This document shows positions 3,473 to 45,554 of a stretch of DNA of 46,431 bases, in pieces. Position 1 is the first letter of the stretch, and each line of letters starts with the position of its first letter. The position numbers and the translations under genes are program-made. The stretch comes from a phage, in NCBI GenBank assembly GCA_021146965.1, contig GCA_021146965.1_4847.1; one strand, written 5' to 3'. The notes under the pieces were generated by a model. That model was not told where the DNA came from and searched no databases. It saw only the letters and a program-made list of their open reading frames with translations.

Positions 3473-3530
3473 AACTCACCTCATTCATATCTCGTTTCGA
3501 TGATTTGAATCTACATCACCACCTCGCAGG

Positions 3531-18742: not shown

Positions 18743-18773
18743 TCAATCTACACCAACAATCAAGGGTAAATTT

Positions 18774-22694: not shown

Positions 22695-22723
22695 TTGACG
22701 TAGAATCACAACTGATGTAGATT
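22695..22723 (+). promoter_or_regulatory. putative rightward early promoter
   Basis: TTGACG (22695-22700) - 17 nt - TAGATT (22718-22723), 30 nt upstream of first rightward ORF. Confidence 0.55.
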
Positions 22724-24326: not shown

Positions 24327-24480
24327 ACAGAAAGTCTGGCAACTCGCAAAGCAGCACGAATTAGACGATTTCATCGAGAAGGTTGCAAAGACATTCCCTG
24401 ACGCGCTTGAAGTCGTTCATGTGCAGACGCGAAATGAAAATGCATGGTGCTACACAAAAAATCATACAAATGGTAGATGA
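24313..24480 (+). CDS. hypothetical protein
   Basis: internal ATG of track ORF 24247..24480; overlaps neighbours as in coupled operon. Confidence 0.3.
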   Translation: MQTTKQKVWQLAKQHELDDFIEKVAKTFPDALEVVHVQTRNENAWCYTKNHTNGR

Positions 24481-24907
24481 AATGAAGCTAACAAAAAAAC
24501 AACGCGAAGAGCTACGCATGAAGTTCGGTGGTCGCTGTGCTTATTGTGGGTGTGAGCTACCCGAGAAAGGTTGGCATGCAGACCATGTTGAACCAGTGCT
24601 ACGTAAATCTGAGCAGTGCATGAAGGCAGCGGCGAAAGGGATTTTCAAGCTGAAGGCAACCGGTGAGCTATATCGACCAGAAGCCGAGCGACTGGAAAAC
24701 CTTTACCCTGCGTGCGCCCCCTGCAATCTGATGAAAACTTCCTATTCCCTGGAAATGTTCAGGAAGCAGGTATCTCTTCAGGTTGCTCGTGGGCGCAAAA
24801 GCAGCATGAATTTCCGCACTGCAGAGCGTTTCGGTCTTATCGCCGTGGTGGAGAGACCAGTTGTTTTCTGGTTTGAGAAATACCAGGAAGAGAACGAAAA
24901 AAAATAA
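24470..24907 (+). CDS. HNH endonuclease (classical zinc-finger HNH, packaging-associated type)
   Basis: CAYCGCEL...WHADHVEPV...NLYPACAPCNLMK; located just upstream of terminase genes as for cos-phage HNH proteins; start uncertain (24434/24470). Confidence 0.7.
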   Translation: MVDEMKLTKKQREELRMKFGGRCAYCGCELPEKGWHADHVEPVLRKSEQCMKAAAKGIFKLKATGELYRPEAERLENLYPACAPCNLMKTSYSLEMFRKQVSLQVARGRKSSMNFRTAERFGLIAVVERPVVFWFEKYQEENEKK

Positions 24908-25003: not shown

Positions 25004-25444
25004 ATGGCGAATCCAAATCCAAAACACAAGTTTTCCTCTACAAATCAACCGCCTCCGCGCGGTAAGAGTTATCGCACAGTGCTGCTTGAGGCGCTTCGTG
25101 CTGCAAATACACCGATGAATGAGATTGAATTCGTCACGTATTACATCAATAGGGCCATGACATGCGAAGACGCTCAGGCAACTGGTATGCTTCGAGAGAT
25201 ATTCCTGCGGCTCAACCCAATTCCTAAGCCTGTAGCTCCTCCTGTGGAGTTTGACTTCCCTGCTGACGGAACTCCGGTTCAGAAAATGGATGCAATCATC
25301 AAGGGTGTCTCCACTGGCGTCGTGCCTGCTGACATCGGCAAGATGATGGCTGACATTATCAAGTCTGGCCTTGATATTCAGGAAATCACCGAACTCGCAG
25401 CGCGACTTGAGCGACTGGAGAAATTGCTGGAACAGCAACAGTAA
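25004..25444 (+). CDS. terS: putative terminase small subunit
   Basis: 146-aa ORF immediately upstream of terminase large subunit region; assigned by position and size. Confidence 0.4.
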   Translation: MANPNPKHKFSSTNQPPPRGKSYRTVLLEALRAANTPMNEIEFVTYYINRAMTCEDAQATGMLREIFLRLNPIPKPVAPPVEFDFPADGTPVQKMDAIIKGVSTGVVPADIGKMMADIIKSGLDIQEITELAARLERLEKLLEQQQ

Positions 25445-25546: not shown

Positions 25547-26059
25547 ATGCGACCCTTAAAAGAAGAAAAACTCACGCAAGACAGGCTGAAAGAGTTGCTG
25601 CATTATAACCATGATACTGGTATTTTCACATGGGTTCAGCGCGCCTCAAAAAGCGTAAGAGTTGGTAATTCAGCTGGCAGTAAGAATAAGTCAGGCTATA
25701 TAGATATACGCATCGATAAGTCTTTACACAAAGCTCATCGGCTTGCGTGGCTTTACATTTATGGTGTGTGGCCCAATGGGAAAATAGATCACATCAATAA
25801 CGTGAAGACAGATAACAGAATCTGCAACCTGAGAGAAGCAAGCAATAATGAAAACGGATGGAATGCTGGTAAACCATCGACAAATACGTCAGGAGTAAAA
25901 GGTGTGAGTTGGGATGCAGAGAAAAATAAATGGAAGGCGCATTGCAGGGTTTTTGGGAAAAAATATACAGTAGGTAGGTTTTCATCAAAAGAATATGCTG
26001 AGAGAGCCGTGGCGGAGTTCAGAGAGAAACATCACGGGGAGTTTTTTAATCATGGCTAG
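25547..26059 (+). CDS. HNH homing endonuclease with AP2 domain (paralog 2 of 4), inserted between terS and terL
   Basis: IDHINNVKTDNRICNLREA motif plus AP2-like SGVKGVSWDAEKNKWKAHCRVFGKKYTVGRF; 3' end overlaps terL start. Confidence 0.8.
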   Translation: MRPLKEEKLTQDRLKELLHYNHDTGIFTWVQRASKSVRVGNSAGSKNKSGYIDIRIDKSLHKAHRLAWLYIYGVWPNGKIDHINNVKTDNRICNLREASNNENGWNAGKPSTNTSGVKGVSWDAEKNKWKAHCRVFGKKYTVGRFSSKEYAERAVAEFREKHHGEFFNHG

Positions 26060-27476
26060 AAAAAGACTCTCAAGTGTGGCAATCGAAAAACTTGAACAGG
26101 CGGTTGGAAACTCAACTTCAAAGCCTGAGTCTGCTGTATTTGGCATTGTTAACAAACTGCTTGCCGATGGTACGCCTAATGTTATAAAGCGCCTAAAAAT
26201 GACATCAACAGGCGTATCTGAAACAAACGAAGAACCAACAATCCTCATTCCCGAGAGAATGGAATTACTGCTTTATCCTCGTCGTTTCAAAGTGTTCTAT
26301 GGTGGTAGGGGGAGCGGAAAGACGGCTAACGTTGTTTCTTACCTCATCGAAAAGGCAAGATTCCGTAACAGTCGCGTCGGATGCTTTCGTGAGATACAGA
26401 ACTCAATCAAAGAATCAAGCTATGCCGAACTGGTTGATGAGATAAACAGGAAAGGACACACTCAGGAATATCGTTGCGTGGATGGTGAAATAACCCACCA
26501 TTCAACGAGGTCAAAGTTTGTTTTCCGTGGTTTGTGGCGAAATATAACCGCCATTAAGGGTATGGCTGGCCTTACAGATGTATTCTGTGAAGAATCAGAA
26601 AATATCAGCCAGGTTTCATGGGATACGCTAATCCCAACAGTCCGCGCCGCTGGCTCTGAAATTATTATTGTTTTTAACCCAAACAAAGAGACGGACCCGA
26701 CATGGACTAACTTTGTTGCGCCTTATATTGACAAGATGGTTGACGGCATATATCAGGATGATGACATCGTTGTTGTTAATGTTAATTACATCCACAACCC
26801 GTGGTTCACGGAAGAACTTAAGCAGCACATGAACCAGATGAAAGCTGTGGATTATGATCGCTACCTTTGGGTGTATGAAGGCTTATTCAACAAGCGGTCT
26901 GACGAAGCTGTTCTCGGGGGGAAATGGCAAACACTCGACTTTGAACCATCTCCTGAGTGGGGTGGGCCTTACTACGGCATTGACTTTGGTTTTTCTCAGG
27001 ATGCAACAGCAGCAACTGAATCATATGTAGAAGATTTGGGTGATGGACGAAGAAACCTGTATATCTATCGTGACTTTGCAAAGGTTGGCCTTGAGATAAC
27101 TGACACGCCGGAAGCGATGCGCTCAGCATTCCCAAATTCAGAGAAGTACAGATGGTATGGGGATTGCGCAAGACCTGAAACAATAAGCCATATACGACGC
27201 TCTGGATTCGATATTCATCCGTGCGCAAAATGGCCGGGGAGCATTGAGGACGGTATTACGTGGCTGCGTGGGTGTGACAGGATTTACGTGCACTCAAGAT
27301 GCAGGCACGTCATTGAAGAGATGACAATGTACAGCTATAAGGTGGACAAATTAACAGGTAACATACTCCCTGATATAGTTGATAAATACAATCACGCGAT
27401 TGATAGTTTACGCTATGGACTTGGAGATCACATCGTTCAACGCGGTAGCGGGATGCTAATCCGGCGCAGGCGATAA
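26052..27476 (+). CDS. terL: terminase large subunit
   Basis: Walker A FYGGRGSGKT; ~475 aa; start placed at ATG 26052 (track ORF begins 25995 inside HNH gene). Confidence 0.85.
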   Translation: MARKRLSSVAIEKLEQAVGNSTSKPESAVFGIVNKLLADGTPNVIKRLKMTSTGVSETNEEPTILIPERMELLLYPRRFKVFYGGRGSGKTANVVSYLIEKARFRNSRVGCFREIQNSIKESSYAELVDEINRKGHTQEYRCVDGEITHHSTRSKFVFRGLWRNITAIKGMAGLTDVFCEESENISQVSWDTLIPTVRAAGSEIIIVFNPNKETDPTWTNFVAPYIDKMVDGIYQDDDIVVVNVNYIHNPWFTEELKQHMNQMKAVDYDRYLWVYEGLFNKRSDEAVLGGKWQTLDFEPSPEWGGPYYGIDFGFSQDATAATESYVEDLGDGRRNLYIYRDFAKVGLEITDTPEAMRSAFPNSEKYRWYGDCARPETISHIRRSGFDIHPCAKWPGSIEDGITWLRGCDRIYVHSRCRHVIEEMTMYSYKVDKLTGNILPDIVDKYNHAIDSLRYGLGDHIVQRGSGMLIRRRR

Positions 27477-27492
27477 ATCCGCATCACCACAC

Positions 27493-27524
27493 TTGACCAA
27501 TCTACACCGAGCGCATAGTATAAT
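27493..27524 (+). promoter_or_regulatory. putative promoter for accessory cassette
   Basis: TTGACC (27493-27498) - 17 nt - TAGTAT (27516-27521), overlapping TATAAT 27519-27524; contains CAATCTACACC motif copy. Confidence 0.45.
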
Positions 27525-27552
27525 CTACATCAGGCTTATCGGAGATATCACT

Positions 27553-27759
27553 ATGCGCAGCTATGCAGGGTTCACACAGGAGGAGAAAGAGCAGGTTTAT
27601 TCACTGGCTCGGGCTGGTGTGCCAGATGAGGTGATTTGCCGTCGGTATGACATCGACGAGGATTTCCTGCTGCGCGTTATTGATGATGTCTTCGTTAACC
27701 TGCAAGAGAAGCGCGGATATAAAGGTATCTGCTGCAAGAATGATTTTTTGAGAGGGTGA
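27553..27759 (+). CDS. hypothetical protein
   Basis: ATG with GGAGA RBS; internal start of track ORF 27493..27759. Confidence 0.4.
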   Translation: MRSYAGFTQEEKEQVYSLARAGVPDEVICRRYDIDEDFLLRVIDDVFVNLQEKRGYKGICCKNDFLRG

Positions 27760-27763
27760 TGTG

Positions 27764-27958
27764 ATGATTAAGATGAGCAAGATGAGCAACAGAAGCAAGG
27801 TTTGCAGGATTGCTTTATTGCCAATCTTCCTGCCTGTGTGGTTGTTATGGGTTTTATTTTCTGGGGCGAGAAATCTATTTGAGTATCTTGAATTTTGTCA
27901 GGCAAAGGTTATACGAAAATTCCATAATGTCATTGATAAGTGGTTTCCGCTTGGTTGA
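27764..27958 (+). CDS. small membrane protein
   Basis: hydrophobic segment IALLPIFLPVWLLWVLF; ATG 27764 after GAGGGTG. Confidence 0.4.
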   Translation: MIKMSKMSNRSKVCRIALLPIFLPVWLLWVLFSGARNLFEYLEFCQAKVIRKFHNVIDKWFPLG

Positions 27959-27967
27959 GGTGATGTG

Positions 27968-28135
27968 ATGAAAATTGAAGAAACAGTTAACTGCATGGCG
28001 ATTAATGTGTTCACGGATTGCGATACCATTTGCGTGCAGGATTTCACTGGCGATTATGTCAGGATTGACAAACACCAAGCCGCGCAGCTAATCGAAGTCC
28101 TGCAACGCTGGGTTAATGGTGAGGAAATTGAGTGA
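27968..28135 (+). CDS. small hypothetical protein (55 aa)
   Basis: ATG with GAGGTG RBS; below track cut-off. Confidence 0.35.
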   Translation: MKIEETVNCMAINVFTDCDTICVQDFTGDYVRIDKHQAAQLIEVLQRWVNGEEIE

Positions 28136-28320
28136 TGAGTGTTTATTTCATTCATGGTGAAGTGCTTGATGGTGGTGATGTTGTTACCAAGGTTTGCGCG
28201 ACATCTACGGCATCAAACGCCAGTGAAGCGTTTGATTGGTTTTTGGGTTGCGAATTGGTTGTAAAGTACGAAATAAAAGGCTACGACGTCATCATTGATA
28301 AACTGGAAAAGGTGGAGTGA
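28135..28320 (+). CDS. hypothetical protein
   Basis: ATG 28135 overlapping upstream stop. Confidence 0.4.
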   Translation: MSVYFIHGEVLDGGDVVTKVCATSTASNASEAFDWFLGCELVVKYEIKGYDVIIDKLEKVE

Positions 28321-28523
28321 TGGACAGAAAACATCTTCACGATATGGCAGTTGAACTTAGAAAAAAGTTTGAAGGCATCTGGTTTGATAGTCATGATGAA
28401 TTCAATAATAAGCAGTATCAGGTTTACGCAAAATGCAGGGGATTGGTTCTTGGTGATAGGATGGAAAATGCCGTATTCCATCACAGCAACGACACGATGC
28501 ACAGGCGAGCTTTCGACTACTGA
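28320..28523 (+). CDS. hypothetical protein
   Basis: ATG 28320 overlapping upstream stop (ATGA). Confidence 0.4.
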   Translation: MDRKHLHDMAVELRKKFEGIWFDSHDEFNNKQYQVYAKCRGLVLGDRMENAVFHHSNDTMHRRAFDY

Positions 28524-28528
28524 TACCA

Positions 28529-28563
28529 TGCTATAATCCCTCCATCGTGAGGGATTTTTTATT
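28529..28563 (+). promoter_or_regulatory. hairpin with T-run (terminator-like) overlapping an extended -10 element TGcTATAAT
   Basis: TGC+TATAAT at 28529-28537; AATCCCTC-catcgt-GAGGGATT hairpin 28535-28556 followed by TTTTTATT; 9 nt upstream of portal ATG. Confidence 0.4.
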
Positions 28564-28568
28564 GGTGA

Positions 28569-30915
<2,347 letters not shown>

Positions 30916-32267: not shown

Positions 32268-32353
32268 CACTTGATGTAGATACTATGCACCACCAACCAA
32301 TCTACGTCAACACCATTGTGATAGAATTAATCATTATTTGAACTGGAGGCAGA
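32268..32353. promoter_or_regulatory. divergent promoter/operator region with inverted motif pair
   Basis: TTGATGTAGAT (32271-32281) and inverted CAATCTACGTCAACA (32298-32312) between divergent operons; GGAGG RBS at 32345-32349. Confidence 0.45.
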
Positions 32354-35490: not shown

Positions 35491-35535
35491 TTGACGTTTC
35501 TACATCATTTAGTCAATACTTGTTGACGTAGATTG
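35491..35535. promoter_or_regulatory. divergent promoter/operator region with tandem TTGACG... motif copies
   Basis: TTGACGTTTCTACATCA (35491-35507) and TGTTGACGTAGATTG (35521-35535) between divergent genes 35257..35463(-) and 35563..35760(+). Confidence 0.45.
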
Positions 35536-45492: not shown

Positions 45493-45554
45493 TTGTTTCT
45501 ACGTCACTAACTATAAACGCACCACCAATCTACGTCAACAGGAATATGCTAAAA
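45493..45554. promoter_or_regulatory. divergent promoter/operator region with two motif copies
   Basis: TTTCTACGTCA (45497-45507) and CAATCTACGTCAACA (45526-45540); on minus strand these give TTGACG - 17 nt - TATAGT; TAAAAT at 45549-45554 for rightward genes. Confidence 0.45.

Follow-up and report, generated by a model that had tools for sequence, protein, structure and literature searches.

What are five small genes doing between the terminase large subunit gene (terL) and the portal gene of a siphophage, and how long have they been there? The question arises in a 46,431-nt stretch of phage DNA (contig GCA_021146965.1_4847.1 of GenBank assembly GCA_021146965.1; hereafter the window, with coordinates on the + strand unless marked otherwise), where positions 27493–28563 hold an array of five open reading frames (ORFs), o1 to o5. 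An original prediction made from the sequence had described a self-contained cassette with a promoter of its own, five small coupled ORFs including one membrane protein, a hairpin with a T-run at the end, and an extended −10 element just upstream of portal. It recognized no function for the genes, and took the cassette to be an acquired accessory island on the grounds that terL and portal are normally adjacent. All of the predicted elements are present, and both the promoter and the terminator are conserved in relatives. The premise of adjacency is contradicted by a comparison of synteny within the lineage, and the acquired island survives in part: o2–o5 are accessory genes, but o1 is a core gene and the insertion is not recent. 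The locus is an ancestral accessory array whose genes are shuffled behind a regulator-like core gene; it is bounded by conserved signals and found in about 200 related phages. The array is probably one autonomous transcription unit in a lineage-wide variable slot between terL and portal, with o1 as regulator and o2–o5 as passengers.

The window belongs to the Skate/Sf11/VSt472 group of siphophages, whose hosts are Salmonella, Escherichia, and Shigella. Group members have been assigned to the International Committee on Taxonomy of Viruses genera Skatevirus, Cedarrivervirus, Macdonaldcampvirus, Shuimuvirus, and Buchananvirus, and the BASEL authors handled Skate/Sf11-like phages as a single cluster (10.1101/2024.09.12.612763). 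The nearest deposited relatives of the window are the E. coli phages HC6, 6947, and HC8A. We collected forty-four related loci (L001–L044) from GenBank phages and IMG/VR and cut the terL–portal gap from each, which gave thirty-four distinct gaps. Two further loci extend the comparison: L045, a metagenomic relative with an o1 that is 68 per cent identical, and L048, from a remote lineage.

Each of the thirty-four distinct gaps (535–2390 bp) holds an array; none is empty, and terL never adjoins portal. Clustering of their ORFs gave thirty-eight families in total, with twenty-four found downstream of o1 (ten of these seen once). The gaps carry one to seven genes in twenty-nine different gene orders. 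Gene content thus differs in nearly every phage, and what stays constant is the two boundaries and the gene-to-gene junctions. The promoter, the first gene, and a combined terminator/promoter element are shared by all thirty-four gaps, and o1 is always the first + strand gene 3′ of the promoter. By family, o1 is present in thirty-four gaps, o4 in twenty-five, o3 in nineteen, an unrelated family (cluster 3) in sixteen, o5 in ten, and o2 in four. In VSt472 and one IMG/VR phage (L020) o1 stands alone, and in SB28 a single gene accompanies it. The rough order is an optional minus-strand gene after terL, the promoter, o1, a variable slot, o3, o4, a second variable slot, either o5 or cluster 3 (joined in some loci by an HNH endonuclease gene), the terminator, and portal. 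L045 has terL, two minus-strand genes, o1, three small genes, and portal, and in L048 an o1-like protein (E ~7e-6 in a profile search) is again encoded directly upstream of portal. A whole-genome map of the group member Bas79 shows clusters of small genes breaking up the structural genes at several other sites as well; annotations of the group name no transcription regulator.

The lead gene, o1 (27553–27759; 68 residues, acidic, isoelectric point (pI) 5.0), is a core gene of the lineage by its distribution. It is found in 206 phage records, compared with 208 for the matching portal. Sorted by host genus, the two sets agree throughout, the exceptions being a 1.5-kb fragment record and one distant Yersinia phage. 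Among Salmonella records the counts are 128 for o1 and 129 for portal, a difference that the 1.5-kb Salmonella fragment can explain. The set of portal records includes mutants down to 35,993 bp. Across Skate-like phages o1 retains at least 91 per cent amino acid identity, even where terL is only ~70 per cent identical, and it is much better conserved than the genes around it. The family is small, with sixteen representatives among 1.84 billion proteins.

The flanking genes vary independently of one another. On the left, terL (26052–27476) matches PHROG terminase large subunit families (E = 4e-53); its start follows the 474-aa annotation of relatives (the mechanical ORF begins at 25995), and the annotated length is 1425 nt in Sf11, HC6, and Skate. 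On the right, portal (28572–29984; phrog_146, E = 3e-94) is preceded by a Shine–Dalgarno (SD) sequence, GGTGA, at 28564–28568. The C-terminal 150 residues of TerL fall into two main alleles (~99 versus ~70 per cent), as do the N-terminal 150 residues of the portal protein (~97 versus ~75 per cent). All four pairings of these alleles were seen, so the locus is a recombination seam. A third portal variant (~88 per cent) is found in four gaps, and at least three of these (seszw and relatives) have an HNH gene in the gap. Some portal homologs are named ‘anti-CBASS protein Acb1 family’ or ‘Acb1-like N-terminal domain-containing’ in NCBI and UniRef; this looks like name transfer through a shared domain model, with no sign of anti-CBASS activity.

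The promoter ahead of o1 (P_o1, 27493–27521) consists of a −35 hexamer TTGACC (27493–27498), a 17-nt spacer, and a −10 hexamer TAGTAT (27516–27521), and is near-invariant in thirty-two relatives. Over thirty-two distinct sequences, the change per aligned base was 0.019 from the −35 to the end of a motif that follows the −10 (27493–27531; box 2, described below), against 0.175 at the third codon positions of o1 and 0.071 in the adjacent downstream leader. Constraint on P_o1 is therefore about nine times that on synonymous-type sites. TTGAC is intact in thirty-one of the thirty-two, and the sole change in TAGTAT is to TAATAT, which is closer to consensus. A common 1-nt deletion breaks an alternative TATAAT register and leaves TAGTAT at 17 bp. 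The layout recurs in L045 (TTGACC, 17 nt, TAGAAT), and P_o1 is the only TTGAC-N18-TAnnAT site in the window. From this conservation we infer that P_o1 is a sigma-70-type promoter with a near-consensus −35 and predicted activity.

Two other features of this region can be noted here. Many relatives (L003, L004, L007, L011, and others) have one or two minus-strand genes, of 50 or 117 aa, between terL and P_o1, and this insertion comes with an extra box element, TATCTACGTCAACATTTATTATT. It is missing from the window, so only 16 nt separate the terL stop codon from the −35. A 9-bp inverted repeat without mismatches, GCGCATAGT (27511–27519) and ACTATGCGC (27550–27558), spans the o1 −10 and start codon. 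We considered and rejected it as an operator: its right arm varies in relatives, the repeat is absent from L045, and it is probably fortuitous.

The array ends in a predicted intrinsic terminator (28535–28560), identified by folding and by conserved pairing. An 8-bp stem with four GC pairs, AATCCCTC/GAGGGATT (5′ arm 28535–28542, 3′ arm 28549–28556), encloses a 6-nt loop (28543–28548) and is followed by a T-run. The folding energy is −16.9 kcal/mol (z = −3.8), and none of 200 shuffles folds equally well. The extended −10 of the portal and head genes, TGCTATAAT (TGcTATAAT, 28529–28537), has its hexamer at 28532–28537, overlapping the 5′ arm of the hairpin. The conserved downstream composite reads CATGnTATAATCCC-hairpin-TTTTTT-ATTGGTGACATATG. 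In relatives, TG and TATAAT are invariant, the base between them is C, T, or A, and no −35 is conserved; 5′ of TG the loci have unrelated sequences, as their last genes differ. Five versions of the stem were seen and every one is paired: CCCTC/GAGGG, CCCATC/GATGGG (with two loops), CCCC/GGGG, and CCCTTACA/TGTGAGGG. Where an HNH gene precedes portal, the locus has its own independent pair, with TGATATAAT followed by a hairpin and T-run. The −10 of the portal promoter is TGATACAAT in L045 and TGATATAAT in L048, and in the latter the terminator and promoter are ~40 nt apart and of unrelated sequence. The composite is single-copy: no second copy with three or fewer mismatches is present in the 46-kb window, and none lies between array genes. 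This pattern of variation is one of selection for a putative intrinsic terminator and extended −10 promoter, beyond sequence identity.

Between these boundaries, the five ORFs lie at 27553–27759 (o1), 27764–27958 (o2), 27968–28135 (o3), 28135–28320 (o4), and 28320–28523 (o5). Each has an SD-like motif upstream, and neighboring genes meet at the stop/start arrangements TGAtgtgATG (o1/o2), TGAggtgatgtgATG (o2/o3), and TGATG (both o3/o4 and o4/o5). Variable sites at codon positions 1, 2, and 3 number 10, 8, and 47 in o1; 12, 4, and 16 in o2; 10, 1, and 26 in o3; 21, 22, and 47 in o4; and 16, 12, and 25 in o5. This excess at position 3 in all five families marks o1–o5 as genuine coding genes. A 96-aa antisense ORF over o5 (28281–28571) is spurious, since the variation there sits on + strand codon position 3. 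The GC content of the array is 43.4 per cent, compared with 45.2 per cent for terL, 48.7 per cent for portal, and 46.5 per cent for the window; single genes range from 38.5 per cent (o2) to 49.5 per cent (o1). As the original prediction had it, function is not recognizable from the proteins. Scans of all five against Pfam, NCBIfam, and PADLOC gave no usable match, o2–o5 match only PHROG families of ‘unknown function’, and PDB sequence searches with o1, o3, and o5 returned chance-level matches only. Weak matches of o5 to KPBB_C (E = 0.0017) and TRP75 (E = 0.055) were dismissed as far under the cut-offs. An Rfam scan found no RNA family within the array.

The four genes after o1 differ in character. 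The predicted membrane protein is o2 (64 aa, basic, pI 10.2), in which hydropathy points to one transmembrane segment: a 19-residue hydrophobic stretch at residues 13–31 (mean hydropathy 2.21), after a basic N-terminus. It has a weak match to phrog_20630 and is rare, with ten phage records. An acidic protein, o3 (55 aa, pI 4.3; phrog_13627, E = 2e-30), is usually paired with o4 (61 aa, acidic, pI 4.5), which is the commonest accessory gene and evolves fast; identity falls to 57 per cent in relatives with the length fixed at sixty-one residues. The o4 model is a compact beta-beta-alpha-alpha-beta fold with a predicted local distance difference test score (pLDDT) of 94.8, and a search with this fold returned only generic eL20/PurS-like folds. 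The neutral o5 (67 aa; phrog_17303) occupies the last slot, where it alternates with cluster 3, and is found in twenty-four phage records, including relatives infecting Klebsiella, Vibrio, and Aeromonas that carry it at ~52 per cent identity in the same array.

The junctions suggest how these genes move. An exact 13-nt direct repeat, GGTGATGTGATGA, brackets o2, with its left copy at the o1/o2 border (27755–27767), where it contains the SD and the stop/start overlap, and its right copy at the o2/o3 border (27959–27971). In relatives, junction sequences are reused whatever gene comes next: a junction ending in GGTGGAGTGATG follows o4, cluster 8, and cluster 17, and one ending in GAGAGGGTGAtgtgATG follows o1 ahead of many different genes. 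Present in four to twenty-five of the thirty-four gaps, o2–o5 are true accessory genes that are swapped at conserved stop/start junctions. Their homologs do not behave as conserved morphogenesis factors, which the original prediction had named as evidence that would count against it, given the two phages that have o1 only; o1 is conserved, and no evidence for a role in morphogenesis was found. By analogy, likely roles for o2–o5 are host takeover, anti-defence, and exclusion, the last for the membrane protein o2.

For o1 the evidence on function comes mainly from modeling. The AlphaFold model (pLDDT 81.6) has three helices, at residues 9–20, 25–31, and 36–53, in a helix-turn-helix (HTH) arrangement that superposes on sigma region 4 and LuxR-type domains at 1.2–1.6 Å. 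The best PDB sequence match is NarL, at E = 2. On the model, o1 is a probable regulator with a sigma region 4/LuxR-like fold. Whether o1 can be removed was judged from deposited genomes of the relative seszw, which was the subject of a CRISPR genome-reduction study with dozens of mutant genomes (PMC9825161). Among the seszw contigs, exact o1 is present on 60 + 2, its o5-family neighbor on sixty-two, and an intact HNH gene of the same gap on twenty-four. In the one 40.5-kb mutant that we inspected, the HNH gene was the only gap gene lost. This retention of o1 is suggestive of importance and falls short of proof that it is essential.

P_o1 also contains two copies of a motif that recurs across the genome, with the consensus AATCTACRYC, and that sits at most of the predicted phage promoters. 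Box 1, AATCTACACC (27499–27508), lies in the spacer and abuts the −35. Box 2, AATCTACATC (27522–27531), is directly 3′ of the −10, over the expected transcription start. Both are conserved in relatives, and in L045 box 2 overlaps the −10 (TAGAATCTACATC). The window has seven copies of AATCTACA where 1.15 are expected, a number reached in none of 100 shuffles, and eighteen copies of the 10-mer AATCTACAYC with at most one mismatch where 4.65 are expected. In addition to those at 27499 and 27522, box sites are located at 2115–2124, 3508–3517, 18745–18754, 22714–22723 (−), 32299–32308, 35525–35534 (−), and 45527–45536, often with a second copy, TCTACGTCA, 17–30 nt away. Several copies precede extended −10 promoters. 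For the major-tail and tape-measure units, boxes lie 38–43 nt before TGATATAAT at 2150 and 3548. Between divergent genes, at 32299 and 45527, AATCTACGTCAAC starts 23 nt before TGATAGAAT or TGCTAAAAT, and the arrangement at 35534 is similar. In Bas79, ten of twenty copies of TCTACRYC fall within the non-coding 4.1 per cent of the genome, most of the others are 20–80 nt upstream of a start codon, and every box is oriented like its downstream gene. L045 has five copies of the motif where 0.23 are expected. The possibility that the boxes are −10 elements of the opposite strand (TAGATT/TAGAAT) was rejected, since box orientation matches the downstream gene even inside late operons. Searched for in the literature, the box sequence turned up in unrelated primers only, with no description of the motif. 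In L048, an inverted repeat at 370–400, GCCGGTAG-N11-CTACCGGC, precedes the o1-like gene, and its arms hold the box core CTAC (GTAGATT on one strand). This repeat may be an operator of related specificity.

Taken together as a transcription unit, the locus would work as follows. Host RNA polymerase would transcribe the array from P_o1. Array transcripts, along with any terL read-through, would contain the whole hairpin and U-run and stop at the terminator, leaving the head operon to be driven separately. Transcripts of portal are predicted to start ~7 nt 3′ of the −10, in the hairpin loop; a transcript that starts there would lack the 5′ arm, so no terminator would form and the polymerase would read through into portal. 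The terminator/promoter element would in this way insulate the head operon from the array and restart transcription within 30 nt. The product of o1 would be important to the phage and would probably act on phage transcription, either via the AATCTACRYC boxes or on RNA polymerase itself. The passengers would be dispensable genes of the host-takeover, anti-defence, or superinfection-exclusion kind that ride on the o1 promoter. Co-infecting relatives would exchange them by recombination in the conserved flanks and the reused SD/stop-start junctions.

Several observations weigh against this picture of a regulator followed by passengers. The nine-of-twelve hexamer match of P_o1 is at chance level (sixteen such sites in 8 kb versus 11.8 ± 3.1 expected), and therefore the case for this promoter must rest on the comparison with relatives. 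Promoter strength, timing, termination efficiency, and a start inside the hairpin are predictions for every member of the group. Foldseek places HTH domains at the top for o1 without significance (E ≥ 0.9), and o1 matches nothing in Pfam (at E ≤ 1) or NCBIfam, including the Sigma70_r4 and GerE-type profiles. The third helix of the o1 model is acidic and hydrophobic, starting with the invariant residues D-E-D-F-L-L-R-V, and it is acidic in remote homologs too. Such a helix is atypical for DNA recognition, and o1 as modeled could conceivably act by binding protein. Nothing in the sequences links o1 in particular to the boxes. As for the passengers, the suggested anti-defence and exclusion roles are argued by analogy from size, charge, variability, and position; neither PADLOC nor the fold searches yielded anything for these proteins; and the o5-family gene is kept in all of the seszw mutants (sixty-two genomes), so it may not be freely dispensable everywhere.

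Other explanations account for parts of the same evidence. The array could be a recently acquired island, a classical moron inserted between normally adjacent terL and portal genes in this phage. Its own promoter and terminator, a GC content slightly under that of both flanks, and the lack of known function would all fit, as would the absence of any match to the array in 5,426 E. coli genomes; that same absence leaves an origin from a prophage or the host unsupported. We regard a recent acquisition as very improbable, given that no relative has an empty site (34/34 occupied), that o1 co-occurs with portal in ~206 records, that the same design is found in both L045 and the remote o1-like lineage, and that o5-like genes sit in the same array of Klebsiella, Vibrio, and Aeromonas relatives. 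A different proposal is that the boundaries are kept mainly as recombination substrates, homology anchors like those of T4-type phages, with the promoter and terminator features secondary. The boundaries and junctions are indeed reused irrespective of the neighboring gene, all four terL/portal allele pairings exist, and for the PeSLs of T4-type phages, which combine a promoter and a terminator in one motif, a part in shuffling has been proposed (PMC2839356, PMC4122927). Homology alone would not, however, predict compensatory changes in the stem, variation confined to the n of TGnTATAAT, or −35 and −10 hexamers that are the least variable positions. L048 keeps the logic of a terminator followed by a promoter with unrelated sequence, and the composite is single-copy in the genome. 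Recombination as the main reason for conservation is thus doubtful, and we consider it improbable.

The remaining alternatives concern o1 itself. Its position could reflect its function if it were a packaging or head-assembly factor, either a TerS-like (small terminase) DNA-recognition HTH or a portal-associated protein. It is present throughout the lineage, has its place between the two genes (directly upstream of portal in L048), and is kept in every genome-reduced seszw mutant. No small terminase is recognizable by sequence in the window; the 146-aa ORF at 25004–25444 matches only a PHROG of unknown function. That ORF nevertheless has a C-terminal coiled-coil-like tail and occupies the canonical TerS position upstream of terL, and the sixty-eight residues of o1 leave no space for the oligomerization core that small terminases need. 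With a promoter of its own and a terminator before portal, o1 is predicted not to be co-transcribed with the head genes, and its model finds more matches, and closer ones (1.2–1.6 Å), among sigma region 4 and LuxR-type domains. A packaging role is accordingly an unlikely one. A bolder version of the regulator hypothesis would make o1 an undescribed master switch of Skate/Rouf-like siphophages, a sigma-region-4-like protein that reprograms transcription by one of two routes. Under this proposal, the one promoter of the genome that has a consensus −35 would yield o1 before anything else. The protein could then bind the boxes at or near the −35 position of nearly all other (extended −10) promoters, with the overlap at its own promoter giving autorepression. 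Alternatively, and in keeping with the acidic helix, o1 could mimic region 4, docking on RNA polymerase or sigma and shifting the enzyme from −35-dependent to extended −10 promoters. Were this so, the passenger genes would be hitch-hiking on the earliest and most reliable promoter of the phage. We hold the master switch to be a tentative idea, with a real but lesser chance of being correct, and the autonomous unit with a regulator and its passengers to be the probable explanation.

Compared with known systems, the array combines features of several. Phage morons are independent promoter-gene-terminator units between conserved genes, such as HK97 gene 15 (PMC3594210). Like them, the array has at the sequence level its own sigma-70-type promoter and factor-independent terminator, lies in the structural/packaging region, and carries genes (o2–o5) that appear unneeded for virion construction. 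Unlike a moron, it leaves no member with an empty slot and has a core gene at its head, with absence from relatives seen for o2–o5 only, and it has several coupled genes instead of one. The GC difference from the surrounding genes is small. Members of the group are described as lytic isolates, which makes expression from a repressed prophage an unlikely rationale. The hyperplastic regions of T4-type phages, with their PeSL promoter/stem-loop cassettes, in which a repeated motif flanks ORFans (PMC2839356, PMC4122927), likewise hold variable, mostly orphan small genes at a fixed place between core genes. They also share a composite terminator/promoter at the border, and close relatives differ by insertion, deletion, and replacement at short conserved sequences. 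In contrast to PeSLs, the composite of the array is single-copy, and there is no dispersed repeat flanking each ORFan; the genes are joined by 8–13 nt SD/stop-start junctions, and the promoter overlaps the terminator stem and would serve a downstream core gene, portal. In PeSL cassettes, recombination between copies gives indels or mini-circles; in the array, exchange is deduced indirectly from the reused junctions and flanks. The likeness of o1 to sigma region 4, to LuxR/GerE HTH domains, and to small phage transcription factors such as Mu C is one of fold only. Among phage proteins, T4 AsiA, MotA, and gp33 act at the sigma region 4/beta-flap interface. Unlike sigma region 4 and LuxR HTH domains, the modeled o1 has no profile membership, no partner domain, and only sixty-eight residues, and it is acidic and belongs to a tiny family.

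This kind of locus is well known in phage genomics as an ordinary plasticity locus, so the novelty is modest, though the regulatory core is possibly new. The part most worth an experiment is the promoter overlapping the terminator, together with the pairing of o1 and the boxes. About 200 genomes of the group now list the array genes as unconnected ‘hypothetical proteins’, and the unit from promoter to terminator gives a target list in which o1 is a candidate essential regulator and o2–o5, along with ~20 alternative families, are candidate host-interaction or anti-defence genes. The group is widely isolated for biocontrol of Salmonella and E. coli, and the box motif with o1 offers a tractable way into its unstudied transcription program. 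For phage engineering, the slot would be a naturally tolerated, insulated, and promoter-equipped payload site between terL and portal, and the promoter-in-terminator would lend itself to synthetic constructs as a compact insulator.

Outside the array, two HNH endonuclease genes (24383–24907 and 25547–26059) bracket the putative small-terminase ORF at 25004–25444, which was not recognized as TerS by PHROGs, Pfam, or NCBIfam, or by a PDB sequence search (chance-level matches only). The second HNH gene overlaps the mechanical start of the terL ORF. Relatives vary in the HNH genes upstream of terL, and some carry another inside the terL–portal gap. A tRNA-Ile gene with anticodon AAT (1540–1616, − strand; Rfam 56.3 bits, also found by ARAGORN) lies among + strand ORFs, in surroundings that resemble the head-tail/tail gene region by comparison with Bas79.

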